Below are positions 12,393-32,826 of a stretch of 36,557 bases of DNA, one piece after another. A model generated the notes under the pieces. It saw nothing but the letters and a program-made list of their open reading frames with translations. It searched no databases and had not been told where the DNA came from. The stretch is from a virus, in IMG/VR virus record IMGVR_UViG_3300045988_044858, positions 1 through 36,557 of that record. One strand, 5' to 3'. Each line of letters opens with the position of its first letter. The stretch's first letter is position 1. The position numbers and the translations under genes are program-made.

Positions 12393-12709
12393 TTCATTTT
12401 CTCATTAAATTTAAAACTCAATTTGTCAGACGTTCGATAAGTTTGTACGTGATCGGAGTACGCGGCGCGCCGGGCCTGCTCGAAAATAGTTTCGTAACGT
12501 TTGGCGTGTGGAATTATAAAGCCCCGGATTTTATACTTAAACTTTTTTCCGGCCTCTTCTTCTCGTTGCAAATCATCGAACACCATTTTCGAGTTGCCCG
12601 GATAGCCATATAGCATTGTAGCCTCGCCTATCGTTTTGCACGCTGTAATCCTCTCCCGTATAATCTTGTAAAAGAACGCTTCTAATTTATAAATGTCTAT
12701 TGATGCCAT
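12380..12709 (-). CDS. hypothetical protein, first gene of the early unit
   Basis: 109-aa ORF directly downstream of promoter 12786-12815. Confidence 0.65.
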   Translation of the reverse strand: MASIDIYKLEAFFYKIIRERITACKTIGEATMLYGYPGNSKMVFDDLQREEEAGKKFKYKIRGFIIPHAKRYETIFEQARRAAYSDHVQTYRTSDKLSFKFNEKMKWKK

Positions 12710-12785
12710 ATCTAGTAATGTTTAAAACGATTCTCCGGTATCGGAATAGTTCAACAAATTTAGTTGGTTTCTCATTTCGACGTGA

Positions 12786-12815
12786 CAAAGGTAAGGCTTT
12801 GTTTTGAACTACAAA
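12786..12815 (-). promoter_or_regulatory. Bacteroidota-type promoter: TTTG-N18-TACCTTTG, heading the early unit
   Basis: The minus strand reads agTTTTGtagttcaaaacaaagcctTACCTTTGtcacg. A second possible -7 box, TAAATTTG, lies at 12755-12762. Confidence 0.6.
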
Positions 12816-12916
12816 ACTATTTCCCAAAAAACTTTAGTATTTTAACCCTGATTAACTGTTTTGAAGGTTTGATAACGGTGTAAATGATGAATAGCCCTTT
12901 TTAAGCGGATCTTTTA

Positions 12917-12951
12917 CACCTTAACTAATTGCGTATCAGTTAGTTAAGGTG
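12917..12951. other. perfect 12-bp inverted repeat with an 11-nt spacer, overlapping an iteron
   Basis: caccttaactaa-ttgcgtatcag-ttagttaaggtg. The left arm overlaps the ATCTTTTACAC site at 12909-12919. Confidence 0.8.
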
Positions 12952-13095
12952 GCGAAAACAGGGAAATGCATAAGATGTAAAGGTGTTTTCCATATAGTTT
13001 ATATTTAAATATTTCTATAAATTCATTCACATATTAATTCATATATTTACATATATTATAGATTATCTAATATTTATCTGTCAGCTCTATATAAC

Positions 13096-13198
13096 ATCTT
13101 TACATCTTTTACAAATGATATATATTATATGATAAAGTACTAGTTATTAGTGAGTTAAGTGTAAAAGATACAAATTTTAATCGTTTACATGCAAAAAC
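13096..13198. repeat. 103-bp dispersed repeat, copy R1
   Basis: It aligns with 32483-32584 at about 86 of 103 positions by eye. It includes identical blocks atctttacatcttttacaaat and gtgtaaaagatacaaattttaa with the same 56-bp iteron spacing. Confidence 0.85.
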
Positions 13199-13274
13199 GC
13201 CAACTCATTAAGAATCAGCGTTTTAAGTTTTCAAGTGTAAAAGATGGAAGGGCGTTTATGAAAGATGAAAGGCA

Positions 13275-13862
13275 TTATTTGCCGAATTCTGCCGAGAATT
13301 CTACGTGTATTTTAGATTTTGGGTTTTTATTCGATACGGTTATCGTTTGTTTCGGTTTTCCGATCCGGAAGAATAAAAAACGCTTTTGCTTGACTGATCC
13401 GATCACGTCGATCGTGTCGATACTGCTAGATTTTATAATCGTGGTGTCCGGTCGGGCTTCGACTTGTATATCATTCCACCCGTCGAAATAGTGCGCAAAT
13501 CGGTTTTCTTTGTCACCGTCCCGGTATTCCGTCTTAACCACGGTGTCCACCTTGGTAACTGTCTCGGCCCTTGTAGCGTTCTTAAGCTCTCTTATCTTTA
13601 TTCCCGCCTCGCGTACCTTATTATATAGATCGGCGTTATATAGTTCTAGCTCGTCCTTCTCTAGCTTTAACTGCCTGGCCTGTTCCGCATAATCGCCTGC
13701 CGTAGTCTTGAATGCTACGGCCTCAGTGTTAAGCGCGGTGAGGTTGTTTTCCTGCCGTTCTAGCTCTTTATGCTGCCTTTTTATAGTCTTATACGACGCG
13801 TACAATAAAATGGCTAGAAGGACCGCTAAACACACCAATATCTTATTTAATGTTATTTTCAT
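13275..13862 (-). CDS. membrane-anchored coiled-coil protein (spanin-like lysis accessory)
   Basis: 195 aa with an N-terminal TM anchor (ILVCLAVLLAILLYA) followed by a coiled coil. It has an ATGA overlap with the endolysin stop and is the last gene of the late unit. Confidence 0.5.
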   Translation of the reverse strand: MKITLNKILVCLAVLLAILLYASYKTIKRQHKELERQENNLTALNTEAVAFKTTAGDYAEQARQLKLEKDELELYNADLYNKVREAGIKIRELKNATRAETVTKVDTVVKTEYRDGDKENRFAHYFDGWNDIQVEARPDTTIIKSSSIDTIDVIGSVKQKRFLFFRIGKPKQTITVSNKNPKSKIHVEFSAEFGK

Positions 13863-14257
13863 AGGTGAAGTATTTGGCGTTTCACATTGTTCTTATCGTA
13901 TGAGATATGCACCCAGGTGAAACCCCTTTCGTCGATAAGCTGGCAATAGGGCAAATTGAGTTCCTGCGCCAGTTCAAAGAGTTTCTTATTTTCCGCTTTG
14001 CTTCCCGCTGTTATGTCCGCCGCTTGTCCCTTGACGTGCTGCGACGTTTTAGAGCCTTTTACCGCCGCGTTTAGGGCGGGTGATCTATATCCGCTATTAA
14101 CCCGGATCGGTTTGCCGTACGCGTCCCTAAGAGGGTCTAGAACGTTATCAACTAACAGCTTCAGATTCTCCGCTGCTTCCGGTGTCGGATCGTTGTTGAT
14201 CTTCTTCGCCTCCGCTGTCGTTGACGCGGTTAGCTCTTGGATTGTGAAGTTTCGCAT
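13859..14257 (-). CDS. endolysin, peptidase M15 (L-alanyl-D-glutamate / D-Ala-D-Ala peptidase type)
   Basis: 132 aa with SGYRSPALNAAVKGSKTSQHVKGQAADI and WVHISY, which give the H-x(6)-D ... H zinc-ligand pattern of the M15_3/M15_4 families. Confidence 0.82.
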   Translation of the reverse strand: MRNFTIQELTASTTAEAKKINNDPTPEAAENLKLLVDNVLDPLRDAYGKPIRVNSGYRSPALNAAVKGSKTSQHVKGQAADITAGSKAENKKLFELAQELNLPYCQLIDERGFTWVHISYDKNNVKRQILHL

Positions 14258-14675
14258 TTTTCAAGTTTTTTATAAAGTCCAAATATTTAGTATTAATCAG
14301 AATATCCAGTACCGCTACAAATTCATTATCCGGTTGGATTTTTTTAAAGTTACGGATAATATTCTTAGAATACACCAGCGCGAAAAGCGTTGTAAGTAAT
14401 CGTAATAAGTCCGTATAGTTCCCCTCCGGCTCTATAAGCCGTGCGCCTGCCGCCGTGAATAGAATCACGATCGCCGCGATAGCATACTCGAAAAAGGCAT
14501 GGAAAGCCTTTTTGTGGCTGTATTTTTCACCAGCCCTTAAACCTGCAATAAGTCCTACTATAAAATTCAGCATCCCGAACAACACGATCAAGATGAAGAA
14601 CGTCATCACATCATTAGTAACGGTTAGTAGGAAAGCTAGAGACGCGACGCGCGCCGTATCAAAAACTCCATCCAT
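14148..14675 (-). CDS. holin-like multi-pass membrane protein
   Basis: Three hydrophobic segments and a highly charged C-terminal tail, immediately upstream of the endolysin. I chose the start at MDGVFD because it gives a TAATG junction with the upstream gene. The 3' end overlaps the endolysin by 110 nt. Confidence 0.55.
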   Translation of the reverse strand: MDGVFDTARVASLAFLLTVTNDVMTFFILIVLFGMLNFIVGLIAGLRAGEKYSHKKAFHAFFEYAIAAIVILFTAAGARLIEPEGNYTDLLRLLTTLFALVYSKNIIRNFKKIQPDNEFVAVLDILINTKYLDFIKNLKNAKLHNPRANRVNDSGGEEDQQRSDTGSSGESEAVS

Positions 14676-15112
14676 TATTTTATTAAACATATCCGTGATT
14701 GTACCCTGTGTGAACATTCCTCTTCAATCAGTTTAGCGTCTTTAAACGCCTTGATTAACGGGACTATAAATAAATCAGCTTTCCCGCGTTCGGCTTCAAA
14801 CCGTCTCGCTTTGTTATCATCGGCTAGAACGTAGCTGCCTCCATAGTTTTGTATTTTTAGGCCGCTTGCCGTGCTCTGCTGCTCGCTTGTCTGCAAGTAG
14901 CGCGCAAAGGCATAGTAGCATAATACTTTATTAGCTCCTGTACACGCCGTGGTATCAACTAAGTACTCCGACGGTATCTCTTCATACGATCGTTTGAGCT
15001 GCGGCGACATGTCGAGCATATCGGCTTCATAAAAAGCCTTTTCAATGTCGCTATCCTTAACGTCCTTTGCGATCGTAAACAAATCTCGTAGTAATTGGAT
15101 CGGGTATGCCAT
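14675..15112 (-). CDS. hypothetical virion or morphogenesis protein
   Basis: 145-aa ORF directly after the putative portal gene. Confidence 0.6.
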   Translation of the reverse strand: MAYPIQLLRDLFTIAKDVKDSDIEKAFYEADMLDMSPQLKRSYEEIPSEYLVDTTACTGANKVLCYYAFARYLQTSEQQSTASGLKIQNYGGSYVLADDNKARRFEAERGKADLFIVPLIKAFKDAKLIEEECSHRVQSRICLIK

Positions 15113-15113
15113 A

Positions 15114-16262
15114 TTAATCTGTTATTACTTGGTCGGGCGCAATATCCGCGTCGCCTTCCAAATCGTTTTTAATTTTAGTTAGTTCCGGGTCTATGTCGAA
15201 TATATATGCCAGGTCGCGGGAAATCTTATCACGGACGCGCGACAAAGAGCGGCGGTAAACGCGCTGCATCTCCTTAACCACTTCGCCCGACGCATTCGAG
15301 AAGCTAATCAATGATGAATCAATAAGCGGGATCGGAATAGTGAAACAAGAAATAGCAATGTCTTTCCGCAACGGCTCGCAATATGATTTGTACAGGTCGG
15401 AATCGATAGGCGTACCGATTTGGTCCACACGGATAAACGGCTTCTCTGTAATACCTACATTCTCGTCTCGCACCGTAAGAACCGCGCCGGTCCCTTCTAC
15501 CCCCATCATTTCGGTAATAGCGTCCCGGAATTCGTTTTGCTCCTGATCGCTCTGGAACATCCCGTGCGAAACTACGCTACAGGCGTGGAAACCGCGCGCT
15601 AGAACGTTCTCAACATACAGGGCGTTCCCGTGTTCGGCTCCCATTTCCGGCTGTACTGCATGAAACGGGCTGATAGGATAGGGGCGACGGTTTGAGAAGT
15701 TAGCGTAATAGAGTTGCCCCGGATGGTTTTCAATACCTCCGTACTCTTCGCACTCCTTCCAAAAGTTTTTCGGGTTGAAGTTCGGATAAACCACGCCCGT
15801 TTTAACGTTCGTGTCCTTCAGCATCTCGCGTTCCCAGTTGTCGAATACGCGCCATTTCCGCACGATTGAATCGCGTTTGTAGTCCTCGTTAAGAACGGCA
15901 CGAACGTAGCCGAACGGCACAGGATAACAGTACAAAGGGCGACCATCGCCGCCGTATTGTACTATTAACGCGTAACCTCTATATCTCGGTATCTCGTCGG
16001 CTACGAACTCTAAAACGTCGTTCATGTCCTGCCCGTGCTCGTTGGTTCTCGCTGCAAAATCTTCGTTAACGAACCCTTCGCAAATAATGTTTTCTTTCGC
16101 CTTGTCACAACACGCCGTAGCGGTTTTGCTAGCGTCGATAAGATTTGCGATACGTTGCGGGTATAGATTATCTACATCGTAACTAACCACCCCTTCAGAA
16201 GTACGGGGCACTAAATTCAGTGCCCTACGTACTATTAACTCTATTTTCTTTGCTGCGATCAT
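15114..16262 (-). CDS. putative portal protein
   Basis: 382 aa. It is the only remaining large structural ORF without a fibre-like or coiled-coil character. The assignment is by elimination and general composition, not by a recognised motif. Confidence 0.4.
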   Translation of the reverse strand: MIAAKKIELIVRRALNLVPRTSEGVVSYDVDNLYPQRIANLIDASKTATACCDKAKENIICEGFVNEDFAARTNEHGQDMNDVLEFVADEIPRYRGYALIVQYGGDGRPLYCYPVPFGYVRAVLNEDYKRDSIVRKWRVFDNWEREMLKDTNVKTGVVYPNFNPKNFWKECEEYGGIENHPGQLYYANFSNRRPYPISPFHAVQPEMGAEHGNALYVENVLARGFHACSVVSHGMFQSDQEQNEFRDAITEMMGVEGTGAVLTVRDENVGITEKPFIRVDQIGTPIDSDLYKSYCEPLRKDIAISCFTIPIPLIDSSLISFSNASGEVVKEMQRVYRRSLSRVRDKISRDLAYIFDIDPELTKIKNDLEGDADIAPDQVITD

Positions 16263-16275
16263 TGATTTACCTTTT

Positions 16276-16294
16276 TATATATATATATATATAT
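16276..16294. repeat. (TA)9 dinucleotide microsatellite
   Basis: tatatatatatatatatat fills most of the 31-nt gap between the stop at 16294 and the ATG of the putative portal gene at 16262. Confidence 0.9.
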
Positions 16295-16788
16295 TATTCT
16301 TCGAACTCTTTCAGACCCTCGGCGGCTTCTGCTTCTGCTGCCTTTTTCGCTGCTCTAGTAGCCGCGGCTTTTTTAGCCGCTTCGCTACGTTTAGCCGCGG
16401 CGATCTCTTCCTCCGATAGTTCCGGCTCTTCTGCTGCCATTACTTGAACGGCTTCTGGCTCTTCCGCCGGGGCTTCCGGTTCTTCCGCCGGGGCTTCGGG
16501 CTCTGCTTGCAGGTCTATAAAATAGTCCTTGTAATTTTCATTTGCTTCCATGAACTCCACGGCCTTCTCGTCACTTGTGTTGAAAGCGCGGTACACTCTT
16601 CCATCTTCAATCGAGTTGATGAATAGTCCCGGCTTCATTACGTAGCGGGTGTGTACACCAGTTAAATAACGTTCTTCATACCAACGTTGTGCAAACAGGC
16701 GATCCGCGCCGCACGTAATATCCAATTTTAGATTAGTCATTGTTTGACACAATGAAACTATCTGTCCTATATCTGTAATTTTTTCCAT
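16294..16788 (-). CDS. hypothetical structural protein with an acidic PAEEPEA repeat and an Ala/Lys-rich tail
   Basis: 164-aa ORF. Its C-terminal half is EPEAPAEEPEAPAEEPEAV...AAKKAAATRAAKKAAEAEAAE. Confidence 0.65.
   Translation of the reverse strand: MEKITDIGQIVSLCQTMTNLKLDITCGADRLFAQRWYEERYLTGVHTRYVMKPGLFINSIEDGRVYRAFNTSDEKAVEFMEANENYKDYFIDLQAEPEAPAEEPEAPAEEPEAVQVMAAEEPELSEEEIAAAKRSEAAKKAAATRAAKKAAEAEAAEGLKEFEE
16450..16506 (-). repeat. in-frame 21-bp tandem repeat (about 2.7 units) inside a CDS
   Basis: The units are ggcttctggctcttccgccgg, ggcttccggttcttccgccgg and ggcttcgggctctgc. They encode PAEEPEA repeats. Confidence 0.85.
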
Positions 16789-16810
16789 CTTTTAAACTGT
16801 TTTTAATTTA

Positions 16811-17350
16811 CTAAACTTTCGGTATCTTCAGACCGTCGTACGCGGCCTTAGTTAACGTTAAGAGTTTATCACCCGTTGACGCTTCCGGTGTTTTAAGTGT
16901 TACCGTTGAAATACCGCCGGTACTTGAATCGGTTGCCATGTCCGAAGCTTCCAAGCCGCAAAATGCACCTGCTAAATAACAGTTACCTGATTTAGATTTC
17001 AGAGCCACCCTAAAATTACCTTTTAGAAGGCTCGTTAACGCCGAGCGATATGCGGTGCTATCCATAGAGGACATAACCTTAATAACGACGCTCTGATCTT
17101 CTGCCGCGGGTACTATATCGTTTGCTTTAATAGCTTCCTGGTACATTACGGAATTGTTAATAGAGTTGACTACGTACCCCTTTTTTCCGGTTAGCATCGT
17201 GATTGTCCCCGCCCCTCCGGTTTCCGATATGGTGGAGATGTCCGAAGAGTTTATAACAATTGCTTCATCTATTTCACCCGTTCCCCCTAGGTTTTCGATA
17301 TTTGCGCAATCATACGCTATATCCTGATCTAGTTTTTTTAAACATGCCAT
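16811..17350 (-). CDS. structural paralogue 3 of 3 (179 aa)
   Basis: Starts MACLKKL...YDC and shares TGGISTVTLKTPE with the two upstream paralogues. Confidence 0.75.
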   Translation of the reverse strand: MACLKKLDQDIAYDCANIENLGGTGEIDEAIVINSSDISTISETGGAGTITMLTGKKGYVVNSINNSVMYQEAIKANDIVPAAEDQSVVIKVMSSMDSTAYRSALTSLLKGNFRVALKSKSGNCYLAGAFCGLEASDMATDSSTGGISTVTLKTPEASTGDKLLTLTKAAYDGLKIPKV

Positions 17351-17363
17351 ATAATACCCTCCT

Positions 17364-17897
17364 TTATGATTCTGTTACGATCGCCGCGGCTCTCAATGTG
17401 TTATAACTAGCATCGGCAAAGCTTACACGCTTCTCGCCGATAACATTTTCTGATGTCGATAGCGTGATCGTGGTAAAACCGCCATTTGCGTTCAAGTCCT
17501 CCGAAATAGCGGTAGGGTTCAAACCATAGTTATACCCGTAAACGCGGGTTCTCCCGGATTTAGTCTTAACCAGTGCTAAAAATGTACCGTTTAAAATCTG
17601 ATTCACAATCAGAGTTCCGTTTGCGTTACCCTGATACAATGTGAACATAACCGCCTGCGTCAACGCTGTTGGCGCGTTATCGTTAGTCTTTATCTCTTCC
17701 GTAGCATTTACACCCTTCTTGTTACTCTCAACCAGCACGGCCTTAGCGCCAGCAGCTAACGTTATAATGGCAAGGCCATTCGCTACGCTCTTCGACGCAA
17801 TATCGGCAAAGTTGATAAGAAGCATCTCGGCTACGCCTGTTGCCCCTCCGTCGCAATCTACTAAGATCGCTTTAGTTAATTTATTTAAGCATCCCAT
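17364..17897 (-). CDS. structural paralogue 2 of 3 (177 aa)
   Basis: Starts MGCLNKL...VDC and shares GVAEMLLINF, QAVMFTLY and NGGFTTITLSTSE with paralogue 1. Confidence 0.75.
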   Translation of the reverse strand: MGCLNKLTKAILVDCDGGATGVAEMLLINFADIASKSVANGLAIITLAAGAKAVLVESNKKGVNATEEIKTNDNAPTALTQAVMFTLYQGNANGTLIVNQILNGTFLALVKTKSGRTRVYGYNYGLNPTAISEDLNANGGFTTITLSTSENVIGEKRVSFADASYNTLRAAAIVTES

Positions 17898-17900
17898 ATT

Positions 17901-18437
17901 TTAAGCTAGTTTTGCGGCTGTGATTGTCGTCCACGCTCCCGAAACGATTTGTATTCTATTTTCTCCTCTAGCATCGTCCGGCGTTTTAATCGTTATTGTA
18001 GTAAAACCGCCTGCTGCGCTAGAATCCATATCAGCTTGTGAAATTTCAAGCCCACATTTGTAACCCACCATAAGTGGAACCGCGTTTATATCGTTCAACT
18101 TGATAGCCGCCATGAAACGCCCGGATAACAAAGCCGACACAATTGCGTTAGTTTCAAAGCCATTTTTGTTATATATAGTGAACATAACGGACTGATCCAA
18201 ACCTGCCGAAACATCTGATAACTTCAGCGCCTCTGTAAACTTTGCGCCGTTCTTGTAACAATCTACCGGAACTGTTTTAGCCCCTGATTTTAGCGTTATC
18301 GCTGTTATAGAGTTGTTGTGATCAACGGTTGCGGCGGTTACGTCGTCAAAGTTAATCAGATACATTTCAGCGATACCTACGCTGCCGGCTTGGCAGTCGT
18401 AGGTAATTGCTTTATTTAATGTCTTTATACAAGCCAT
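17901..18437 (-). CDS. structural paralogue 1 of 3 (178 aa)
   Basis: Starts MACIKTL...YDC and contains GIAEMYLINF, QSVMFTIY and AGGFTTITIKTPD. It lies directly after the major capsid gene. Confidence 0.75.
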   Translation of the reverse strand: MACIKTLNKAITYDCQAGSVGIAEMYLINFDDVTAATVDHNNSITAITLKSGAKTVPVDCYKNGAKFTEALKLSDVSAGLDQSVMFTIYNKNGFETNAIVSALLSGRFMAAIKLNDINAVPLMVGYKCGLEISQADMDSSAAGGFTTITIKTPDDARGENRIQIVSGAWTTITAAKLA

Positions 18438-18456
18438 TTAAACTTTGTTTTAATTA

Positions 18457-19413
18457 TTAAACACCTGCTGCGGTGCACAATTTCAAGTATTCAGGAACTG
18501 CAAGCATAGCATCAGCCGCAAATACGGTTGTACTGTAATACTTACGGTCTTTAGCATCACGGATGAACGGATCAATAGTCAGACTTGCGTCTTCAAGTGC
18601 CAACTGAATGTTAGTTTTAGGAGAGAAAGCAATGAAAGACTGAACTGTCAAAGCGTCGCCCTTAGCACTGTTAGATACGTGTCTCAACTCGTTCACCTTG
18701 TAACCTTCGAAGTAGTACGCCGGTTTGCCATTCTCCATGTTAGCTTGTGCCAAATGGTTGTCTTTCGCCTCTACCAAGTCCTTGTAAGCGCGCATAATGT
18801 TGCTAGTTACATAAAATTCTGAATCATCCAATTGATCGGCGCGCTGATTGTCGATACACCATTTCAGACATTCCAAAACGTTAGCACCAGCTCCAGAAGG
18901 AACAAGGGCCTTAATAGATTCGGTTGATGCCTGCATCTGCTTGATGATACCGCCGTTTTTAAACACGGTGTATACACCCGCTGTATCAGCTGCTTTCAGA
19001 CCGTCCAACCATACGAGACGTAACATATCAGCTTCAAGAACTTTCAAAATTTCGTTCTGCATGAAAGCCGCCAACTGTGTTTGGTCGAAATCGGCTGAAA
19101 GGTGAACACCTTTTGCAACCATTTTGCCCCACAAGTCTTGCAGACAAACCACGATAGGCAACTCAATCTGTGTATGATCGTAGTACTTAACTTTATCGTT
19201 AAGAGAACTATACTTGTATTCGCTGTCGCAACCTGCGGAACGTCTTACCGCTTTGTCTGTTGCGGTGAAAGTCAAGATAGGTTTACCCTTTTCAATGCCC
19301 GCTAACACGGTTACACCGTTGGAAAGTTCGCCTTCCAAACCCAGTGTCAAAGAAATAACATCGGCTAGGCTGTCGATATTCAATTTGTTTAAATCGCTAA
19401 ATGCAAATGCCAT
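18457..19413 (-). CDS. putative major capsid protein
   Basis: 318-aa ORF directly downstream of the protease/scaffold gene. Its size and position are typical of an HK97-fold capsid protein. No motif was verified. Confidence 0.6.
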   Translation of the reverse strand: MAFAFSDLNKLNIDSLADVISLTLGLEGELSNGVTVLAGIEKGKPILTFTATDKAVRRSAGCDSEYKYSSLNDKVKYYDHTQIELPIVVCLQDLWGKMVAKGVHLSADFDQTQLAAFMQNEILKVLEADMLRLVWLDGLKAADTAGVYTVFKNGGIIKQMQASTESIKALVPSGAGANVLECLKWCIDNQRADQLDDSEFYVTSNIMRAYKDLVEAKDNHLAQANMENGKPAYYFEGYKVNELRHVSNSAKGDALTVQSFIAFSPKTNIQLALEDASLTIDPFIRDAKDRKYYSTTVFAADAMLAVPEYLKLCTAAGV

Positions 19414-19433
19414 AATTTTAATGTTTTAGTAGA

Positions 19434-20459: not shown

Positions 20460-20479
20460 ATATTACTGTATTATTGGTA

Positions 20480-20487
20480 CAAAGATA
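20480..20487 (-). promoter_or_regulatory. -7 box TATCTTTG upstream of the protease/scaffold and capsid genes
   Basis: Exact TATCTTTG 20 nt upstream of the ATG at 20459, in a 67-nt intergenic gap. The -33 element is only TTCG. Confidence 0.45.
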
Positions 20488-20526
20488 TAATATTTAACGG
20501 CACGAAGCCGCGGCTTTGCCTATGAT

Positions 20527-23040: not shown

Positions 23041-23046
23041 ATTAAT

Positions 23047-24801: not shown

Positions 24802-24803
24802 TC

Positions 24804-26669
24804 TTATCCCTCCTGTTCAATTAAACAAATTGCGATCTCATGCGTAGTTGTATTCTCAAGTCTCAACTGCCCGCTGCGTTTTGCTCCGGGATTCGCCGTA
24901 TCGTATTTAACAGCTATGGCAGTTTGTCCGGACCCTCCTGAGGTAGGCAAAATGGATACCCAGCTAGGCGCGCTACTCATAGTCCAGCCATTTTCAGACG
25001 TTGCCGCCGCGGGCACAATTTGGTTCCCCCCGGCTTTAGGGCCTGACACACGCAACGGTAATATTTTGATTGAAGTTGGCGCGCCTCCCTGATTAACCGT
25101 AACTGTTACAAACTCTCGCGCTATATGATCGTAAAACCTAATCGTCCCGGTTCTAGCGGACGCGCCTGCCGGTAGGTTATCCCCGATCGTTAACGTTACG
25201 GCGGTTGTTTCGCCCCAGCCCTCCGAAACTGATGGAGTTATCCACGGGTCATGCTCTGGCGCGGACCAGTTGCCGAATGGTGTAACGTTCACAGTTACCG
25301 GGTGTGTTAGATAGCCTACGTTAAACGTCGGTGTGTCTACTGTTATATTGCCCGTTGCGCCCGCCTGCCTGATTGGTATTGTGTAGGTAGTAGACCCCGC
25401 CAAACTCTTTAGGACTATGTTACCTGTTCTCGGTTCACCAGTGTTGGCAGCTACCGTGATAACCAAGGGCGTAGTTCCCGCGTTCCCTGTGGGACTATCC
25501 ACTGACATCCACGACGGTGTACTATTCACCTCCCATGCCGTATTACAGTATATGCTGTTAACCAGTCCTTCCGCATACGCCGCGCCGATAGTCCATGGTT
25601 TGAGCTGCGCGCTAAACGCGATCGACGGTGTATGCGGTTGATCCGGTGATAACGGGAACATGTAATTATCTTGTAGCTCGGTTGTTCTGAATCTTACCTG
25701 CTGTCTGTACGTCTTTGTACTGTTGGACCAGCGCGCCCCAGTGTCTCCTGAAACTTCTGCCCTAAAGTGTTTCGATTGGTATTGGTTTATACCCGGTATG
25801 TTCAAGTCAAACACAACATTAGACGATACTAGCAACTCTTGGTAGACGTTGTACCACTCTTCGCCGTACTCTAGGTTTATAGTGATCTCCGCTTGTTCTG
25901 TTACGCCTCCACGACCGCGGATAGGGGTGAACTTATTAGACCAAAAGTAATCCTTAAATGCAGCCCAAAACCATTGGCCATTCCGCATGTTCCATCTGGC
26001 GCGCAAAGCACATTGAAGCCCGGTATCGTAAACGGCATCGGACATTAGGCGGTCTTCATAGTTAATCACTTGATCCAGCCCGTTGCCCCAAACGTTCTTA
26101 ATAGTCAACTTCTTGATATATGTTATATCGATAGTGTCTCCCAGTACATAGGTGGCGGGGAATATAACATTACCGGGCGCACCCGACACGGGTTCAACCT
26201 CAAGGAAAAGCGCATCGGACGGGTGTATAACGTAGGGGAAGAATATGTCTAACGTCTGCCCCGGTATGCGCGGTTTTGGCGGTTGGGGAAGCGCGGCATC
26301 AACGCCTAACGTGTCCCAGTATGTGAGATCACAATGGAATACAGGAATAGTTATATAGTCGGTCGGGTCGGATACCCAGAACAATAACTCCCGTTGCATA
26401 AACCACGGTGTACCCTCCGACTTGTTACGGTCGGCGCGCCTAAGCAAAGGGGCGGCGAAGGATAGATCAACGTCCATCCCGTACTGCTGATATGGCAAAG
26501 TTACGGTTTTAACGGGTGATCCGTTGTTCCTCACAGTAATATTAACAGGCTCATTCGTGCCCGTTGTCACCTTCACCATTAGCGGGCGTGTAGCCCAAAC
26601 GGGTAACTGCCCGTCATAGGTTTGGCCGTCGGTTAGTGTTACATCTGCTATCGGTATATATATGTTCAT
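24804..26669 (-). CDS. tail protein with three C-terminal BACON-like repeats
   Basis: 621 aa. Residues from about 350 to 621 contain three repeats of about 85 aa with the pattern W...PSW[MV]S[VI]...G.G....[IV].V..N.G..R.G.I.[LF]......[IV].[IV].Q.G. Confidence 0.75.
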   Translation of the reverse strand: MNIYIPIADVTLTDGQTYDGQLPVWATRPLMVKVTTGTNEPVNITVRNNGSPVKTVTLPYQQYGMDVDLSFAAPLLRRADRNKSEGTPWFMQRELLFWVSDPTDYITIPVFHCDLTYWDTLGVDAALPQPPKPRIPGQTLDIFFPYVIHPSDALFLEVEPVSGAPGNVIFPATYVLGDTIDITYIKKLTIKNVWGNGLDQVINYEDRLMSDAVYDTGLQCALRARWNMRNGQWFWAAFKDYFWSNKFTPIRGRGGVTEQAEITINLEYGEEWYNVYQELLVSSNVVFDLNIPGINQYQSKHFRAEVSGDTGARWSNSTKTYRQQVRFRTTELQDNYMFPLSPDQPHTPSIAFSAQLKPWTIGAAYAEGLVNSIYCNTAWEVNSTPSWMSVDSPTGNAGTTPLVITVAANTGEPRTGNIVLKSLAGSTTYTIPIRQAGATGNITVDTPTFNVGYLTHPVTVNVTPFGNWSAPEHDPWITPSVSEGWGETTAVTLTIGDNLPAGASARTGTIRFYDHIAREFVTVTVNQGGAPTSIKILPLRVSGPKAGGNQIVPAAATSENGWTMSSAPSWVSILPTSGGSGQTAIAVKYDTANPGAKRSGQLRLENTTTHEIAICLIEQEG

Positions 26670-27115
26670 TATTTAATATTTAAAGTGTCAATAATAGCAT
26701 ATTTAATTATAGTTACTATCTCATTTTGTAACTTCAAGACCCTTGCAGGGTTGAGTACGTCCGATACTACGCCGCCGGGGTTGTGACTGTTCGGTACTTT
26801 GATCCCGAACTCTCCGATAGCTTTCGCGATCGGGTACGCGGCGGTTAGCGGTATGTTCGCGCCTTGCTTGTTCTTGTCCTCGATCCATTTACGTATGATC
26901 CACAACGGCGGGCGTTTACCCACAGCGCGTCCGCCTTCCATCGCACCCACATAGCGCGGTGCGGTTATTTGCGCACTGTTACGCCCTACAACCAACTTAA
27001 GCTCCTTGGCGAAGTTACCGGATGCCATCAGCCCTTTAGCCTTGTAAGACGCTTCTATGTCGTCCCGTAGCTTGGTTAGCAGCACCTCTATTTCCAACAT
27101 CGCGTTTCTTGCCAT
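26669..27115 (-). CDS. hypothetical virion protein (possibly gp10-like tail completion)
   Basis: 148-aa ORF with start/stop overlaps to both neighbours. The family guess is weak. Confidence 0.55.
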   Translation of the reverse strand: MARNAMLEIEVLLTKLRDDIEASYKAKGLMASGNFAKELKLVVGRNSAQITAPRYVGAMEGGRAVGKRPPLWIIRKWIEDKNKQGANIPLTAAYPIAKAIGEFGIKVPNSHNPGGVVSDVLNPARVLKLQNEIVTIIKYAIIDTLNIK

Positions 27116-27513
27116 TATTCAGATAGATTTAGTGTTATCTCCCAGCCTGATTTTGGACTGTCGTAAATGTTTTGGCGTTTAACCACTGCCGCCCCCTCGG
27201 ACTCATATAGGCAAACCGCCTTCTTTGCTATGTCGGTTATAACGGTGAACGTCCTATCCAGTACGTCGATCTCGGACGAGCTGTCGGTTTCGTAGTGCGA
27301 AGTGCCTAATACCTGTATAAGCACAGTGATCGAGAACGCCTCGGCGGCATAGTCGTTATAGTCCTGCCTTCCTCCGGGCACATCAACAAAGATAAAATCA
27401 CCCGTTATATCGTTTGCCAGTCGATTACGTGTGGCTTCATCTCCAAAGAATACGGGAAGCGCGTGTTGCGCCCCCCATGTTCCAACCTGATCTAGTATCC
27501 CTTTAAAGGTCAT
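27115..27513 (-). CDS. hypothetical virion protein
   Basis: 132-aa ORF, translationally coupled to its neighbours. Confidence 0.6.
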   Translation of the reverse strand: MTFKGILDQVGTWGAQHALPVFFGDEATRNRLANDITGDFIFVDVPGGRQDYNDYAAEAFSITVLIQVLGTSHYETDSSSEIDVLDRTFTVITDIAKKAVCLYESEGAAVVKRQNIYDSPKSGWEITLNLSE

Positions 27514-29515
27514 ATTTTGATTTTACATTATTATCGTATTCCGGCTCGTTTACGTCTGTAATGGTCCGTTTACCCGTCCATGTTCTTGTAGCGGTTTGGC
27601 CGTATGATCCGCAAAGAGTTACATCCCCGTATGCGGTTAATGTACCTGCGCTTACCTTAGCGTTGTCCTTCATTGTGAGTATCCCGCATACAATTACCGC
27701 ACCAGATATAACCGCGTTATCCTTCATAACTAGGTCACCCCCGGATAGCTCCGCGGCTGTAGGGGTAAACCTAGCATTGTCGGACAAGTGTATACACCCG
27801 TTCAAAGCAAAATCTCCCAGAACGGCGTACGCGTTACCGGTCATTTTCAAGTTTCTAATAACGCCTACCCCCGCGGTTTTTGTAAATGAAGCGTTATCAC
27901 TCATGAACGCTGAACCCTCTACTAGCAAACCGGATGCAACCGCCTTACCACCGAAGTAGCCCGAACCGATTACCGAGCAATTAGTCAATGTAGCGTTACC
28001 CTCTACGCGGATATTGCCCCTCATGTTAACCGCTGTAGCTCCAGTATTAACGATCTTACAACCGCTTACATCTTGCGTATCGTGCTTCTTAGTGCTACCA
28101 AACACGTTTGTACCTGCGATGTTGAACAAGCCGGACAAATACGCGTCCTTATAGATCGTAGTGTTGTACCCTGAATATGAAACAGGTATACCAAAAGATT
28201 TAATGCTTTCATATGACTCTACAAGACACCCCAAAATATTGTTACTCGTTCCTAGCCTGTACATACCTTCCACGTTTGAAGAGCACATATAAAAACCGCT
28301 CATAACTTTGTTTAAGTCGGTTTGTGCCTTGGCAAAGTCAATGTTAATATATGTGTTATTAATTCGCGGATCGTGCTGGAATCTACCGTTCGGGACGTTA
28401 CAACCTTGAAAGATGAAAGGCATGTTAGCCGCTTTGGCTGCCGCCTCTCCCGGAAAACTTGTGCCCGATACGGCGAAATTGTCGCAGTCGGCAGCCTGAA
28501 TAACTCCACGACTGTCAACTCCGGCACTCCCTGTAACACTCCCTGAAAATGTCAGGTTTTTAACGTTGCGGTATATGCCAATGATTACGGGTGCTAGTTC
28601 TACCGACGCGCTTATAATGGCACTAGTGTTTATAAATTCAGCCATTAAGGTGATGAGTCTGTCAGCTGTAGCATGCACCATCATAGATACCTTCGAGTTT
28701 TGTATAACACTGTCGGGGTACTTTGCGCCGGGTGTCATTGTATAAGTTCCCCCGGGTCGTAATGAAAGTGTCCCTGTGCTAATCGCCGGGTTGATCTCAA
28801 CACGTGAATCGATGATTGAAAGCTTAGTTTCGTAAGTGCCCTTAAACGTGATTTGTGCGGCCGTTGCGTCTGCCGGGACTATATCTGCCGCCGGATTCTT
28901 CATCAGCATCAACATGAAGTATTGCCCCGCCGGAACTGATAAGGTTACACCTGCCCCCGATGCTATTGTGCTTGTAAAGGTTATGCCTAACCCGTCACGA
29001 TCTAGAACAAAAGCTTGAACCGAGTACCCCGGTACAGATATTTTAATCGTTGTTGCCATGCCGCCCACAAAAATAGGTGCCTTTGATCGGACAACCCGAG
29101 TGCTCGGTGTTTTCCATGCCTCCCAGTTGACCCCCGCGGCATAATTTAAGCTGCCTTGTTCGAAGTCAGCCGCCCCTAGCACTACAGCGTCCTCTGCTGT
29201 CTGTCTCGATTCGAAACGTAGTTTGCTACCGACCACGACACTAGACCCCAGAATGTCTACGGCGGGCGTGCCCGCGGTGCTTAGTGCCGCTTCGCCTACG
29301 TCTACGATCGAATCCCCTCCGATGCGAGCACCGGGGAAACCAAAGTTGCCCCTAAACAGCCAGCAAGCGCCATCCTGCGATAATGTATTCTCGTCATACA
29401 CGATGCCGCCCACGTCGCCAATATTGACGTACCGGCCGCCTACCGCCCACGAACGAAGGGCGCGCACTCTCCTGTCGCTCCCTACTGTAATAATCTCATA
29501 CTTTTTTAAACCCAT
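27503..29515 (-). CDS. beta-solenoid fibre or tailspike-like protein
   Basis: 670 aa. The C-terminal region of about 170 aa shows repeats of about 19 residues, each starting [ML]-[KST]-[DG]-N-A (MSDNASF, MTGNAYA, LSDNARF, MKDNAVI, MKDNAKV). Confidence 0.65.
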   Translation of the reverse strand: MGLKKYEIITVGSDRRVRALRSWAVGGRYVNIGDVGGIVYDENTLSQDGACWLFRGNFGFPGARIGGDSIVDVGEAALSTAGTPAVDILGSSVVVGSKLRFESRQTAEDAVVLGAADFEQGSLNYAAGVNWEAWKTPSTRVVRSKAPIFVGGMATTIKISVPGYSVQAFVLDRDGLGITFTSTIASGAGVTLSVPAGQYFMLMLMKNPAADIVPADATAAQITFKGTYETKLSIIDSRVEINPAISTGTLSLRPGGTYTMTPGAKYPDSVIQNSKVSMMVHATADRLITLMAEFINTSAIISASVELAPVIIGIYRNVKNLTFSGSVTGSAGVDSRGVIQAADCDNFAVSGTSFPGEAAAKAANMPFIFQGCNVPNGRFQHDPRINNTYINIDFAKAQTDLNKVMSGFYMCSSNVEGMYRLGTSNNILGCLVESYESIKSFGIPVSYSGYNTTIYKDAYLSGLFNIAGTNVFGSTKKHDTQDVSGCKIVNTGATAVNMRGNIRVEGNATLTNCSVIGSGYFGGKAVASGLLVEGSAFMSDNASFTKTAGVGVIRNLKMTGNAYAVLGDFALNGCIHLSDNARFTPTAAELSGGDLVMKDNAVISGAVIVCGILTMKDNAKVSAGTLTAYGDVTLCGSYGQTATRTWTGKRTITDVNEPEYDNNVKSKYDL

Positions 29516-29519
29516 AACG

Positions 29520-30200
29520 TTATGATTTATAATGTTTCTTCATCTCTGCCTTTTGTTTCTCGTTCTCCTCGTGCCGCTTTGATAGTGCTAACATCGCGTC
29601 CAGATAGTTTATCCGCTTTGCCTCCTCGAACGAACAAGCGAATAACTCCGCCGTAGCCTGTACGAGCGTCAGCACGTTCTTCGCCTCCTTGATCGGATCG
29701 TCTTCCGGCGTGCTCCCCGCGTCGAAAGGGAACAACCGCTTCTCCAGTCCGTCCGCCGTCTCTATCTGCTCCTTGATGTACTTCGTCGCACAAAGCAAAT
29801 GGTAGACGTTATCCGGCGCATACTCGGCCGGCTTGTGCTCGATAGGCGTACACCACTTCGTTACCTTCTCCGTTGCCGTCTCGCTCCTTCTCGCCTCGAT
29901 AACCTGCCAAAGCGTTACGTCTTCAATACGGGGTATACGGTACACGAGCTTCCTGTCTTTTATAATAAAAGGGTCGGCCTTAGCGTACTCTGCCACCGCG
30001 TTTAATGTCGCTGCTTGGTCAGAAGTTAGGCCGCCCTTGTAATTCGGATGCAAGTTACAAATATATTCCAATTGTTTGCGGTTGTAATACCCACAAATTT
30101 TCCACCACAAGCGACGAAAAACGTTTTTAATCTTCCCCCGCCAGTTGGTTTGCTCTTGGAGTATCAGGTCTTCAACACCCATAAACTTTATTTTACTCAT
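29520..30200 (-). CDS. hypothetical protein
   Basis: The track ORF begins with a TTG at 30206. I prefer the ATG at 30200 (MSKIKFMGV), giving 226 aa. Confidence 0.6.
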   Translation of the reverse strand: MSKIKFMGVEDLILQEQTNWRGKIKNVFRRLWWKICGYYNRKQLEYICNLHPNYKGGLTSDQAATLNAVAEYAKADPFIIKDRKLVYRIPRIEDVTLWQVIEARRSETATEKVTKWCTPIEHKPAEYAPDNVYHLLCATKYIKEQIETADGLEKRLFPFDAGSTPEDDPIKEAKNVLTLVQATAELFACSFEEAKRINYLDAMLALSKRHEENEKQKAEMKKHYKS

Positions 30201-30351
30201 ATTCAATCAGTTCTAGTTCTTCGTAATAATACCACTCTTCAACGTTCGATCCGTCCCACTGTACGACCACGCCTAACACGTCGGTCTCTGTAACCGTCCC
30301 GGTGTTCCCGGCGTAATCGTATTTAATGTGTACCCGATCGTCTGTTCTCAT
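30193..30351 (-). CDS. candidate small protein (52 aa, below the track cutoff)
   Basis: My translation is MRTDDRVHIKYDYAGNTGTVTETDVLGVVVQWDGSNVEEWYYYEELELIEYE. It fills the gap between TerL and the next gene and overlaps that gene's ATG by 8 nt. Confidence 0.4.
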   Translation of the reverse strand: MRTDDRVHIKYDYAGNTGTVTETDVLGVVVQWDGSNVEEWYYYEELELIEYE

Positions 30352-30360
30352 GCTGCAAAT

Positions 30361-31533
30361 CTAATCATTATTTGCGTATCTCGGGCGGTATTTACGTATA
30401 AGATAATCAACGCCGTAGCGCACAGCGTCCAATGCATGGTTGTAAGCGTCTACCGGCTCGTTGGTGTACGTGTCGGTCAGGTTGTCCTTGACGTAGGTGT
30501 AATTGTCCGCCTCGTCCAGTACGTTAGTGCTCCGCTTCGTTACAAACAGGTTGAACTGCTTCACCTGTTGTATGCCCGCCCGGATAGATCCTTTTCCCTT
30601 GATGCAGGGGATCGTGTTACAGCCCAGGCCGCGCAATTCTATAATAGACTTCTGCTCCGCGTTGTCGCATACCGTAATGGTACGGTGCAGGCCTTCGTCC
30701 TTGAGACGCTCGGCGATCGTTCGGTTCAGCATCTTCGTCTCGTAGCATACTTCGTCTATGTACAGGTTCATGCCCCGCATGTAGATTTTGACGATAGCGG
30801 TCGGGTCGTTCTGGAAGCCAAAATCAAGCCCTGTAACGAACTTTACGTCCTCGCCCGTTAAATCCTCCGGCAAAGCGTCGATCGTCTCAATTTGGGGATA
30901 TACGAGGCCTTCCAGACCGCCAGTCAGTCCTTCACCGTAGACGCGCCACCAATTAGCATCCTTGGCGTTGCGCTCTATCGCTTCTACTTGCTGCTTGGAT
31001 AGATACGGGTTGTCCTTGTAGGTCGAGTGGATCGTTACGTACTTGTCGCCTGTGAAGTCCGTCTCGCCCCAGAAGCGCCGCACCGGGTTGAAGTCAATAA
31101 TAACCTTGATCGTGGTACGTACGTCCAGCTGTCGGAATATCTCGCGGGGCACGCGCTGCGCCTCGTTGATGAAAAGAATGTCCCGGGCCGGACCATGTAC
31201 CTTCGACGCGTTGTCACACCCGAAGAACTCGATGCACACGCCCGGCTTCACCGTGTAGATCAAGTCGGACTTGTTGAGGGCGTTGTCGTCCCACACCCCC
31301 TCATCTAACAGCATGTTCTGGAAGTCACGGAACATACCGCGCTTGACCGCCGGGAGCGTGTCGGTAACACAGGAGATCATCAGAGGCTCGGTGCTTTCGC
31401 TAGCGACCAGATAGAGGAGCTGTAACACACTCCACGTCTTGGATGAACGTGTACCACCCTTGCTTGCTATACCTCTTATATAGGGGTCGCAAAACGGTCC
31501 TATCATCTTGTTAAATACGTAGGTGCAATTCAT
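30361..31533 (-). CDS. terL: terminase large subunit (PBSX / Terminase_3 type)
   Basis: 390 aa with a Walker A-like KGGTRSSKT, Walker B DILFINEA, STYKDNPYL, and the nuclease motifs GLDFGFQNDPTA, CDNAEQKSI and NHALDAVRY. Confidence 0.9.
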   Translation of the reverse strand: MNCTYVFNKMIGPFCDPYIRGIASKGGTRSSKTWSVLQLLYLVASESTEPLMISCVTDTLPAVKRGMFRDFQNMLLDEGVWDDNALNKSDLIYTVKPGVCIEFFGCDNASKVHGPARDILFINEAQRVPREIFRQLDVRTTIKVIIDFNPVRRFWGETDFTGDKYVTIHSTYKDNPYLSKQQVEAIERNAKDANWWRVYGEGLTGGLEGLVYPQIETIDALPEDLTGEDVKFVTGLDFGFQNDPTAIVKIYMRGMNLYIDEVCYETKMLNRTIAERLKDEGLHRTITVCDNAEQKSIIELRGLGCNTIPCIKGKGSIRAGIQQVKQFNLFVTKRSTNVLDEADNYTYVKDNLTDTYTNEPVDAYNHALDAVRYGVDYLIRKYRPRYANND

Positions 31534-32222
31534 TACTTATCCTCCTCTTTATGATCCTTCTTGAAGTTCTTAATCGAGCTAACCTTTGCGCGCACTTTCG
31601 GATCGGTGACATTCACAGTCAAGCCGCCTTTGATGGCTTCGCCGTTGGACGTGTAGTCCATTTGCGTTTTAATGCCCCGTAGCGCACGAACGTAGTTGGC
31701 GTCGAACTGTCCCACCGTCGCGCCCTGATCGAGGTCCTGTGCGATGGCTTCGCGTATCCTGTCGATCACCGCTATGAAGTCCGCGCATATCGTCAGATCG
31801 AACTCCTTGAGGTTCTCGGCGTACGTGGAGCGTCTATTGCTTAAGTACACGGGATTCGCCCCTAGGAACATGCAGAACTCGCCTTCCGATTGAAGGTGCT
31901 TCTTTGGCACTTCATAGAGCGTTCCAGCCATGTTTCCGGACTTGACGGCCTCTTGTGTTATAACGGGCGTCGCTTCGCACCAAGCCGAGTAAATCGCGTA
32001 GGCCTCCCAAAGTTCTTGGGGTTCTTGCCAAATAGGCGTCATACCGTAATGCGCCGTAGCGACCTGGTAGCACTTGGTGTAGTTGAACGAATCCGCTAAA
32101 TAGCGGGTCGTCGCGTATGTGGGAGCTAATTGGAAGTGCGCGTAATCCGGCCTAACCTTCTCGGGCTTTGGCAGCTGTACCGCTTCCTTAGTTTCTATGA
32201 TTTCTTTCTTCTTTGTAGCCAT
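31533..32222 (-). CDS. terS: putative terminase small subunit
   Basis: 229-aa ORF with a start/stop overlap to terL. It is the first gene of the late unit. The assignment is positional. Confidence 0.5.
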   Translation of the reverse strand: MATKKKEIIETKEAVQLPKPEKVRPDYAHFQLAPTYATTRYLADSFNYTKCYQVATAHYGMTPIWQEPQELWEAYAIYSAWCEATPVITQEAVKSGNMAGTLYEVPKKHLQSEGEFCMFLGANPVYLSNRRSTYAENLKEFDLTICADFIAVIDRIREAIAQDLDQGATVGQFDANYVRALRGIKTQMDYTSNGEAIKGGLTVNVTDPKVRAKVSSIKNFKKDHKEEDK

Positions 32223-32244
32223 ATAATTTTTATTTACAACTCTA

Positions 32245-32252
32245 CAAAATTA
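32245..32252 (-). promoter_or_regulatory. -7 box TAATTTTG upstream of terS (candidate late promoter)
   Basis: The minus strand reads gagTAATTTTGtagagttgtaaataaaaattatATG. No well-spaced TTTG -33 element is present. Confidence 0.45.
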
Positions 32253-32295
32253 CTCTTTTTCCGCCCAAATCGCATCATTTACGCCTATCAAAACC

Positions 32296-32351
32296 ATCTT
32301 TTACACCTGAAACCCCGATGGATAGGGCGTTTCAGCCCGAGTGTAAAAGAT
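32296..32351. other. 56-bp composite palindrome: two inverted iterons enclosing a nested hairpin
   Basis: atcttttacac / gtgtaaaagat (11 bp) flank ctgaaac-c-ccc-gatggata-ggg-c-gtttcag. Confidence 0.8.
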
Positions 32352-32352
32352 G

Positions 32353-32360
32353 CAAAGATA
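32353..32360 (-). promoter_or_regulatory. -7 box TATCTTTG abutting an iteron and the 56-bp palindrome
   Basis: The minus strand reads ttTATCTTTGcATCTTTTACAC. A transcript starting here would begin inside the 32296-32351 palindrome. Confidence 0.35.
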
Positions 32361-32482
32361 AAAAGACGTTTTCCCTATTAGATATATTTTAAAAAAATAC
32401 CCCAAATTAATTATTTAAAATAACAATAGTATATTTATGTTAACTGTATTATTACTTTTTATAATGTACTCCACTAGTATCT

Positions 32483-32584
32483 ATCTTTACATCTTTTACA
32501 AATACACTATATTACAGTATAAAGTACTATAAATAAGCGATTTAGGTGTAAAAGATACAAATTTTAACCTTTTACATCAAAAAC
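32483..32584. repeat. 103-bp dispersed repeat, copy R2
   Basis: Same orientation as 13096-13198. It lies in the ORF-free region upstream of terS. Confidence 0.85.
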
Positions 32585-32783
32585 TTGAAAAGTACGTTCT
32601 ACGTCTTGTGGGGCTGGTCAGCTGTAAATGATGAAATGGCAATGTAAAAGACGTTTTGGCTACTTTTTTTGTCAAAAACAGGCTTTTTAGTTAAAATACC
32701 GTTAAAATCAAGTTTTCTCTATAAAAAGTTTTCTCTCACAAAGTTTTTGTAGAAGTGCGCCAAAAGCGTGTTAACGGTTTTAA

Positions 32784-32820
32784 CACAAAAAGGGGTTAAC
32801 ATTTTTATACATTAACCCCT
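32784..32820 (-). terminator. rho-independent terminator ending the early unit
   Basis: The minus strand reads AGGGGTTAAtgtataaaaatgTTAACCCCTTTTTTGTGTT: a 9-bp stem, a 12-nt loop and a U-run, 7 nt after the stop at 32827. A second 7-bp hairpin, gtgttaa/ttaacac, follows at 32768-32786. Confidence 0.75.
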
Positions 32821-32826
32821 CAATCC

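Follow-up and report, generated by a model that had tools for sequence, protein, structure and literature searches.

Background

The satellite phage P4 encodes the alpha protein, a primase and superfamily 3 (SF3) helicase with a C-terminal DNA-binding domain, which reads the same short repeats at two places, ori and crr. About 4.5 kb separate ori from crr, which is an enhancer and not a second origin, and their architectures are different. The Rep proteins of the Staphylococcus aureus pathogenicity islands (SaPIs) are self-loading helicases that are also initiators by means of a winged helix in the C-terminal domain, and a SaPI ori holds 6-12 iterons just downstream of rep, with an AT-rich centre and at least two oppositely directed iterons on each side of it (PMC9371898). 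Bacillus phage SPP1 carries two similarly organised origins, each with repeats and an AT-rich unwinding element, which are kilobases apart and are served by one binding protein, gp38 (PMC6316719). One of the two occupies a long stretch between genes, with transcription signals on either side of it, on a genome transcribed nearly entirely from one strand, and gp38 bound at oriR has been proposed to stall forks, triggering recombination-dependent concatemer synthesis (PMC6316719). Here we describe two paralogous non-coding regions, R1 and R2, of the IMG/VR virus record IMGVR_UViG_3300045988_044858 (positions 1 to 36,557; this whole stretch of 36,557 nt is hereafter called the window), and compare them with these systems.

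The window represents a circular assembly of 36,502 bp, positions 1-55 being identical to 36503-36557. Its closest group, at 87-89% identity, consists of virulent siphoviruses of Bacteroides ovatus, koreensis and kribbi, for example BK745P3 and BKO1-1. More than 100 related genomes are found in GenBank and IMG/VR, and genome size in the group is roughly 36-38 kb. No description of replication control in these Bacteroides phages was found in the literature searched. The reading that we favour, with a probability of roughly 0.7, is that R1 and R2 are each a Rep-type origin module whose iterons are read by the C-terminal winged helix of the early protein E7, and that the two modules are relocated and duplicated copies. 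In present GenBank records these gaps are either unannotated or filled with spurious small open reading frames (ORFs), and this annotation is corrected here.

Results and discussion

Paralogy and anatomy of R1 and R2

R1 (12710-13274, 565 bp, minus strand) separates the last late/lysis gene from the first early gene, and R2 (32223-32826, 604 bp, minus strand) separates the last early gene from terS, the first late gene. They are the only gaps in the genome longer than about 165 bp. Every credible gene of the window is carried on the minus strand, in agreement with the annotation of BKO1-1, and transcription runs from high to low coordinates. In an ungapped comparison the core repeat (13096-13196 in R1, 32483-32583 in R2, same orientation) matches at 83 of 101 positions, or 82% identity; 300 local-composition shuffles gave a mean of 50.8 matches (standard deviation 1.8) and a maximum of 59. 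A gapped comparison widens the paralogy to about 290 bp, with 69% identity between 12966-13253 and 32350-32640 (E 2e-32), and these two stretches are taken as the R1 and R2 copies of an origin-like module. The paralogy does not reach the promoter-proximal parts of R1 and R2, and the shared segment is located between the terminator of one gene module and the promoter of the next. An earlier, sequence-only reading of this DNA had reported a 103-bp segment common to both regions at about 83% identity, in the same orientation and with identical internal iteron spacing. Alignment bears this out as significant and extends it well past 103 bp, and the spacing within the core is indeed the same in both copies, at 56, 20 and 56 nt. 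That reading was equally right that all genes are on one strand (as regards the credible ones), that R1 and R2 are the sole long non-coding stretches, and in its division of the genome into early and late modules, where both gene content and ends match.

The repeated word, TGTAAAAGAT/ATCTTTTACA, has eight exact matches in the genome, all of them inside R1 or R2. Allowing up to one mismatch raises the genome count to 16 against 3.3 expected; 13 of these fall in R1 or R2, and a 14th lies 34 nt outside R1. Each region holds 10-11 copies of ATCTTTTACA in the same order and orientation. The iterons on the low-coordinate side of R1 (12879-12983) are 12879-88 (-), 12909-18 (+), 12967-76 (-) and a 9-mer-like copy at about 12974-83 (-), and those on its high-coordinate side (13096-13266) are 13096-104 (+, a 9-mer), 13104-13 (+), 13160-69 (-), 13180-89 (+), 13236-45 (-) and 13257-66 (-). 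The corresponding copies of R2 are 32274-83 (+, weak), 32296-305 (+), 32342-51 (-) and 32352-60 (-, a 9-mer) on the low-coordinate side (32274-32360), and 32483-91 (+, a 9-mer), 32491-500 (+), 32547-56 (-), 32567-76 (+), 32623-32 (-) and 32643-52 (-) on the high-coordinate side (32483-32652).

In both regions at least two iterons per side, in opposite orientation, flank an AT-rich centre of 108-122 bp with 15-16% GC, the inverted arms being 12967-87/13093-113 in R1 and 32342-60/32482-500 in R2. Genome-wide, duplex stability over 100 bp is lowest in these two AT-rich stretches, where it lies about 4 standard deviations from the mean. The centre of R1 (12988-13095), a candidate DNA unwinding element, includes the least stable 100 bp (12993-13092, 15% GC), and the centre of R2 (32361-32482) includes the second least stable (32376-32475, 16% GC). 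The midpoints of the modules, at about 13,040 and 32,420, are 19.4 and 17.1 kb apart and therefore nearly antipodal on the circle. A search of Rfam gave no match in the window.

The proposed initiator E7

E7 (5321-7711, minus strand) is an early protein of 796 aa and the proposed iteron reader and initiator. Pfam assigns it a VapE-like domain, and its closest solved structure by sequence (phmmer against the Protein Data Bank, PDB) is 7PDS (E 6.6e-74), the complex of SaPI1 Rep1 with DNA. Residues 381-796, the portion resembling an SF3 helicase of the SaPI Rep kind with a C-terminal winged helix, were modelled with AlphaFold2 from a 38-sequence alignment, giving a mean confidence (pLDDT) of 91. 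Foldseek matched this model to the 7PDS chains with E 5.7e-36, TM scores of 0.78-0.80 and 34% identity over 422-437 columns, an alignment length which means that the match takes in the C-terminal domain. That domain (aa 708-796; 5324-5590, minus strand) has a helix at 749-760 and a wing hairpin at 765-773/777-784 in the model, and residue 778 (codon at 5378-5380, minus strand) is predicted to lie at the tip of the hairpin. The N-terminal 380 aa are presumed to be a primase.

Parallel change of one iteron base and one E7 residue

Within the clade of the window, 13 orthologous iteron copies were compared, and by these the genomes fall into a T class (ATCTTT-T-AC) and a G class (ATCTTT-G-AC at most copies), which differ at base 7 and at none of the other nine positions. 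The window phage belongs to the T class, with T at 13 of 13 copies. The fraction of copies with G in R1 follows that in R2 closely (Spearman rho 0.97, p 9e-17, n=28 genomes): 16 genomes have no G in either region and 12 have G in both. A parallel change at about a dozen dispersed copies, in two loci that in other respects evolve separately, argues for selection by one reader. The sequence-only reading had suggested that one factor might serve both control regions, a suggestion that this T-to-G switch, together with the lineage-specific iterons common to R1 and R2, now supports.

A scan for that reader compared every variable aligned site with iteron class, in 36 IMG/VR genomes and then in an independent set of 17 GenBank isolates, for which the stretch from E7 to R2 of 16 isolates plus BKO1-1 was used. 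Among the 36 IMG/VR genomes the best sites outside the iterons were in E7 and the adjacent PolA gene. In the combined scan of 53 genomes and 6,522 variable sites, site 5379, the second base of E7 codon 778 (Arg versus Ala, Gln, Val or Ser), reached p 3.5e-9, and the next non-iteron site reached 3e-5. Arg778 is present in 10 of 10 G-class and 0 of 7 T-class GenBank isolates, and in this set site 5379 is the sole non-iteron site with a perfect association. Codon 778 of the helicase thus covaries with base 7 of the iteron, and it is because one wing residue changes together with one base in about a dozen copies, at both sites, that we read R1 and R2 as twin origins recognised by E7.

Several other candidates were rejected. 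Site 6269 (E7 D481E, p 8e-6) was the first top site and did not replicate, D and E both being found in each class of the GenBank isolates. An MKGW/LGGW polymorphism in the E7 recognition helix seemed associated by eye, and has counter-examples, 027647 and BK687P2 among them. Covariation across three deep clades was of no use as a test of the reader, as every protein differs between the clades and E7, E2 and E29 are inseparable. The 179-aa protein E29, encoded by the last early gene (32827-33366, minus strand), was weighed as a possible origin binder; it matches no protein family, has homologues only in the closest clade (63-96% identity), and shows no association.

Two further observations concern these proteins. 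E29 is hypervariable, forming 108 clusters at 90% identity within that one clade, where PolA is 91-96% identical, and it might be an arms-race (anti-defence) protein. In BK687P4, BK687P5 and BK687P6 (L183, L175 and L176), E7 codons 748-786 encode a third type of C-terminal domain with Ser778 and TSARGREMAAAM, and the R2 iterons have degenerate 3' halves (ACC ACA TAC CTC TAC CGC/TGC TAC). This type of domain may have a relaxed or different specificity.

Conservation among relatives

Both R1 and R2 are matched in all 19 close GenBank relatives, and all 22 IMG/VR genomes with both regions in the fetched sequence have an R1-R2 shared segment, of 210-370 bp. The same two gaps and a shared segment are found in a B. 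caccae clade (PolA 73% identical) and in a B. thetaiotaomicron clade (52-55%). The iteron word is particular to the clade, being ATCTTTnAC in that of the window, ATCTRTKAC in the B. caccae clade and ATCWATGCA in the B. thetaiotaomicron clade, and in every genome examined R1 and R2 carry one and the same word. Among relatives, the AT-rich centres have kept their composition but not their sequence.

Homologues of E7 at 36-40% identity on IMG/VR contigs have a lineage-specific word repeated 5-9 times within 500 bp, in a cluster that starts 0-30 nt after the stop codon; on one such contig the cluster begins 18 nt before the end of the matched stretch. The cluster is followed by an AT-rich stretch and then by inverted copies of the word, so that each of these contigs has a single origin of this kind adjoining the helicase gene.

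A more distant phage group of IMG/VR genomes of about 33 kb (L062-L085) has, in the stretch about 60-330 nt after the DUF6549 homologue, a terminator at the position equivalent to R1 and then inverted repeats of the CTGCACAG/CTGTGCAG type that surround a short AT-rich stretch. The word varies within this group (TTACACAG in L066).

Proposed twin origins and how they would work

The sequence-only reading had allowed that one region could be a duplicated derivative of the other, and the single iteron origin beside the helicase gene in distant homologues agrees with this. The simplest history, as judged from these sequences, is that the origin was relocated and duplicated in the ancestor of this group of Bacteroides phages. 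The ancestral state would have been one origin directly after the helicase gene, and the two copies that replaced it would have come to occupy the sole gaps free of transcription, each downstream of one module's terminator and upstream of the promoter that begins the next. E7 hexamers would assemble on the inverted iterons flanking the AT-rich centre, melt the centre and load themselves, after which PolA and other early proteins would copy the circle. Both copies may fire, or one may be an auxiliary site that acts, for instance, as a barrier to forks in the manner of SPP1 oriR or as an enhancer in the manner of P4 crr. Alternatively, a copy bound by E7 may stall forks and so lead to recombination-dependent synthesis of concatemers; by analogy with the proposal for SPP1, the second copy may be a barrier programmed to halt forks and set off the switch to such synthesis. 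The exonuclease, the single-stranded DNA (ssDNA)-binding/annealing protein and the VRR-NUC nuclease of the early module could restart a fork stalled at that copy.

The anatomy, paralogy and conservation of R1 and R2, their co-evolution with one E7 residue and the fold assigned to the helicase are what carries the reading as twin origins. That E7 binds at R1 and R2, that the AT-rich centre melts there and that replication starts there, we infer from these sequences, from the structural model and by analogy with the SaPI Reps.

A number of points weigh against twin origins. There are no iterons directly after E7 in the window (5157-5320), so the proposed origins are not beside the helicase gene, and the iterons are 9-10 bp long as opposed to 5-6 nt in SaPIs. 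No primase signature was found in E7 residues 1-380 by Pfam or by the PDB sequence search. GC and AT skew are monotonic and give no origin signal in the genome, although with all genes on one strand the skew is uninformative. The association p-values ignore shared ancestry, yet the D481E and MKGW/LGGW polymorphisms within the same protein assort independently of residue 778. Finally, the modules sit exactly where the early and late promoters must lie, and the bound protein may have a transcriptional role at these promoters, either alone or in addition to one in replication.

This last point leads to the alternative that survives best, unlikely as we consider it, in which the modules are operators of a phage transcription factor that turns the early promoter in R1 off and the late promoter in R2 on. 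Promoters were sought with the Bacteroides pattern TTTG-N17-22-TAnnTTTG in place of a sigma-70 scan, which is not relevant to Bacteroides. The pattern occurs four times against 1.0 expected, always on the minus strand and always in gaps of the early module. One host-type promoter, with TTTG-N18-TACCTTTG, precedes the first early genes (12786-12815) and lies outside the paralogous segment; three are internal to the early module (10460-10489, 5154-5184 and 3037-3067). A candidate late promoter upstream of terS has a -7 box, TAATTTTG (32245-32252, minus strand), which is kept in relatives and is without a properly spaced -33 TTTG. An intrinsic terminator closes the early module (32790-32821, minus strand; 13-bp stem and T run, dG -16.2), and a terminator-like hairpin after the late module lies in R1 between iterons b and c (13194-13224, minus strand; dG -14.6, z -3.5).

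The modules are thereby upstream of both the first early and the candidate late promoter, the weak iteron at 32274-83 overlaps the -33 position of the latter, and the first early gene pair, E1 (109 aa) and E2 (59 aa, HTH_17) at 12213-12709 (minus strand), encodes a candidate reader with a helix-turn-helix (HTH), all of which suits operators. About 60 nt separate the -33 box in R1 from the closest iteron, which lies upstream of it. On the other hand, the other three early promoters carry no iterons, and the promoter-proximal DNA falls outside the shared segment. E1, E2 and E29 adjoin the sites, yet none of them is associated with iteron class among the 36 IMG/VR genomes (minimum p 0.012), and the sole residue that tracks the iterons is in the helicase. 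The E2 stretch TENAIRYQL, which is conserved, follows the first HTH helix and is assumed to contain the helix that reads DNA, does not differ between two clades with different iterons. In distant relatives, moreover, the iteron cluster follows the helicase gene and not a module boundary.

The promoters also revise the transcription map. Two giant transcription units, one per control region, had been proposed from sequence, but this is oversimplified, since the early module, with four host-type promoters within it, does not form a single unit under the control of R1. The same proposal had offered an early/late switch or dual origins as the role of a shared factor. Dual origins have gained from the finding that a Rep-like primase-helicase tracks the iterons; the switch has lost ground, given that neither the HTH protein beside R1 nor the protein beside R2 does so. 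A combination of the two, in which the twin origins double as an early-to-late switch, appears doubtful to us. It would have accumulated E7 load at R2 and melt the AT-rich centre, which lies about 110 bp before the terS promoter, late transcription being activated by this melting or by a passing fork, with E7 at R1 insulating or damping the early promoter. If this were true, a single protein acting through a single repeat word would tie replication to the programme of gene expression, in a phage that encodes neither RNA polymerase nor sigma factor.

A second repeat family (AAAGTTTTYTCTC...), located beside the -33 box, marks host-type early promoters (3023-3097, 5140-5214 and 12772-12846). Two copies lie in R2 (about 32705-32750), upstream of the origin module and in the opposite orientation, and five copies are found at the corresponding place in the B. 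caccae phage BC679P5 (L002 36249-36363). This family may be a site for the E2 HTH protein.

Much less probable than operators are recombination substrates, that is, repeats that mark the boundaries of late-module swaps or deletions and have no sequence-specific reader. Direct repeats do bracket the 19.3-kb late module, and R1-R2 identity within a genome is slightly above that between genomes (p 0.006-0.05). In some genomes of other clades, namely BC679P5, L111 and L130, the two copies are 90-94% identical over 110-385 bp, near-identity that suggests gene conversion. In the clade of the window, by contrast, R1 resembles R1 (0.83) and R2 resembles R2 (0.89) more than either resembles its partner in the same genome (0.78), from which it follows that the duplication is old and mostly not homogenised. 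Breaks in identity, profiled in 26-31 relatives, do not peak at R1 or R2 when these are set against the early region, which is mosaic in general, so that the earlier idea of the repeats as module-exchange boundaries found no support in the mosaic breakpoints. Nor would neutral repeats keep their words, spacing and AT-richness while the spacer sequence drifts, or switch one base in parallel at about a dozen dispersed copies. BLAST had suggested R2-type cores at R1 in three genomes; a nearest-neighbour alignment test gave no cross-type neighbours, only an own-pair identity of 0.87-0.89.

Packaging (pac, bound by TerS) or partition sites are the least probable of all, for although R2 is directly upstream of terS and pac sites typically contain repeated short words, R1 has the same architecture 19 kb from terS and beyond the lysis genes, variation in TerS is not associated with iteron class (minimum p 3e-3), and the architecture fits Rep-type origins.

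The reading of R1 and R2 as twin origins gives a testable model that names a protein, a DNA word, a residue and a base. The pairing of Arg778 with G at iteron position 7 would be a natural specificity switch, useful for studying how Rep-type self-loading helicases read their origins. Such a switch could help in building orthogonal replicons for Bacteroides, and in probing why a phage keeps two nearly antipodal origins.

Other features of the genome

The late module runs from terS (32222) through terL, tail, capsid and portal genes to a membrane protein, an M15 peptidase (13859-14257, minus strand) and a DUF6549 protein, ending at 13275. The early/replication module runs from 12709 across the assembly junction to 32827, and contains in order an exonuclease, the ssDNA-binding protein, PolA, the VapE-type E7, the VRR-NUC nuclease, methyltransferases and a helicase gene that spans the junction. 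There appear to be two methyltransferase genes, one for a D12-class N6-adenine enzyme (34828-35553, by Pfam) and a small one recognised by an NPPY motif alone (620-1099); methyltransferase content differs among relatives, which have Dam, Dmt or none.

E1 (12380-12709) and E2 (12213-12392) have a 13-nt overlap, in the -1 frame, at ...AAA TGG AAA AAG TAG, and in the B. thetaiotaomicron phage BT2 the equivalents of E1 and E2 form one 166-aa protein. The overlap could be a programmed -1 frameshift on GGAAAAAG, or the result of a split gene. A 66-nt direct repeat (2559-2624 and 2801-2866, 89% identical) contains a GC-rich hairpin, GGGCGGCGTTACCCGCCC. Its copies lie just before the starts of ORFs of 56 aa (2400-2570) and 66 aa (2612-2812), and each overlaps the 3' end of the upstream ORF. 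After the major capsid gene there are three tandem paralogues of 177-179 aa with 32-39% identity (16811-17350, 17364-17897 and 17901-18437), to which the annotation of BKO1-1 inconsistently assigns the role of head-tail adaptor or of holin.

In IMG/VR, many contigs from this group of phages stop at sites about 4.3 and 8.9 kb upstream of E7. These were considered as physical termini and rejected, as they coincide with tandem repeats, namely 18-bp units in a 175-aa early gene (11856-11972) and a low-complexity repeat in a 164-aa late gene (16324-16436). The coincidence of so many contig ends with the equivalents of these repeats points to an assembly artefact rather than to termini.

Comparison with known systems

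The SaPI Rep/ori systems (SaPI1 Rep1, 7PDS; PriRep5 of SaPI5) are similar in that the initiator, for which E7 is proposed here, is a self-loading SF3 helicase with a C-terminal winged helix. The proposed origins resemble those of SaPIs as well, with 10-11 iterons here and 6-12 in SaPIs, an AT-rich centre, and at least two opposed iterons per side. SaPI5 has a fusion of the primase gene with that of Rep, which puts the putative primase and Rep on one polypeptide, and E7 likewise has an N-terminal extension of 380 aa, although one that lacks a primase signature detectable by Pfam or PDB sequence search. Unlike a SaPI, which has one origin directly after the gene, this genome would have two, 5 kb upstream and 9 kb downstream of it, and its iterons are the longer ones (9-10 bp against 5-6 nt). 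The carrier also differs, being a virulent Bacteroides siphovirus with its own PolA and not a satellite.

Bacillus phage SPP1, with oriL and oriR, offers a second likeness in that two similarly organised regions of repeats and AT-rich DNA are found on one genome. The layout is comparable too, R1 and R2 being intergenic among transcription signals on a genome with one-strand genes and with an exonuclease, an ssDNA-annealing or -binding protein and a VRR-NUC nuclease. The initiator families are unrelated, SPP1 using gp38 with the loader gp39 and the DnaB-type helicase gp40 where a single Rep-like SF3 protein is proposed here. No gp38-type binding protein, DnaB-type helicase or loader was found by Pfam or PHROGs in about 15 of the 29 early proteins, mostly those of unassigned function. 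A further difference is one of placement, oriL being located within gene 38 and the two copies of the window between genes. For SPP1, the literature consulted gave no account of a comparable co-evolution of iterons.

The ori and crr of P4, likened here by description only, resemble R1 and R2 in that a primase-helicase reads the same repeats in two separated regions. Set beside these systems, what is new is most likely a Rep-type origin that has been duplicated and relocated, and that would be functionally comparable to oriL and oriR of SPP1 and to ori and crr of P4.

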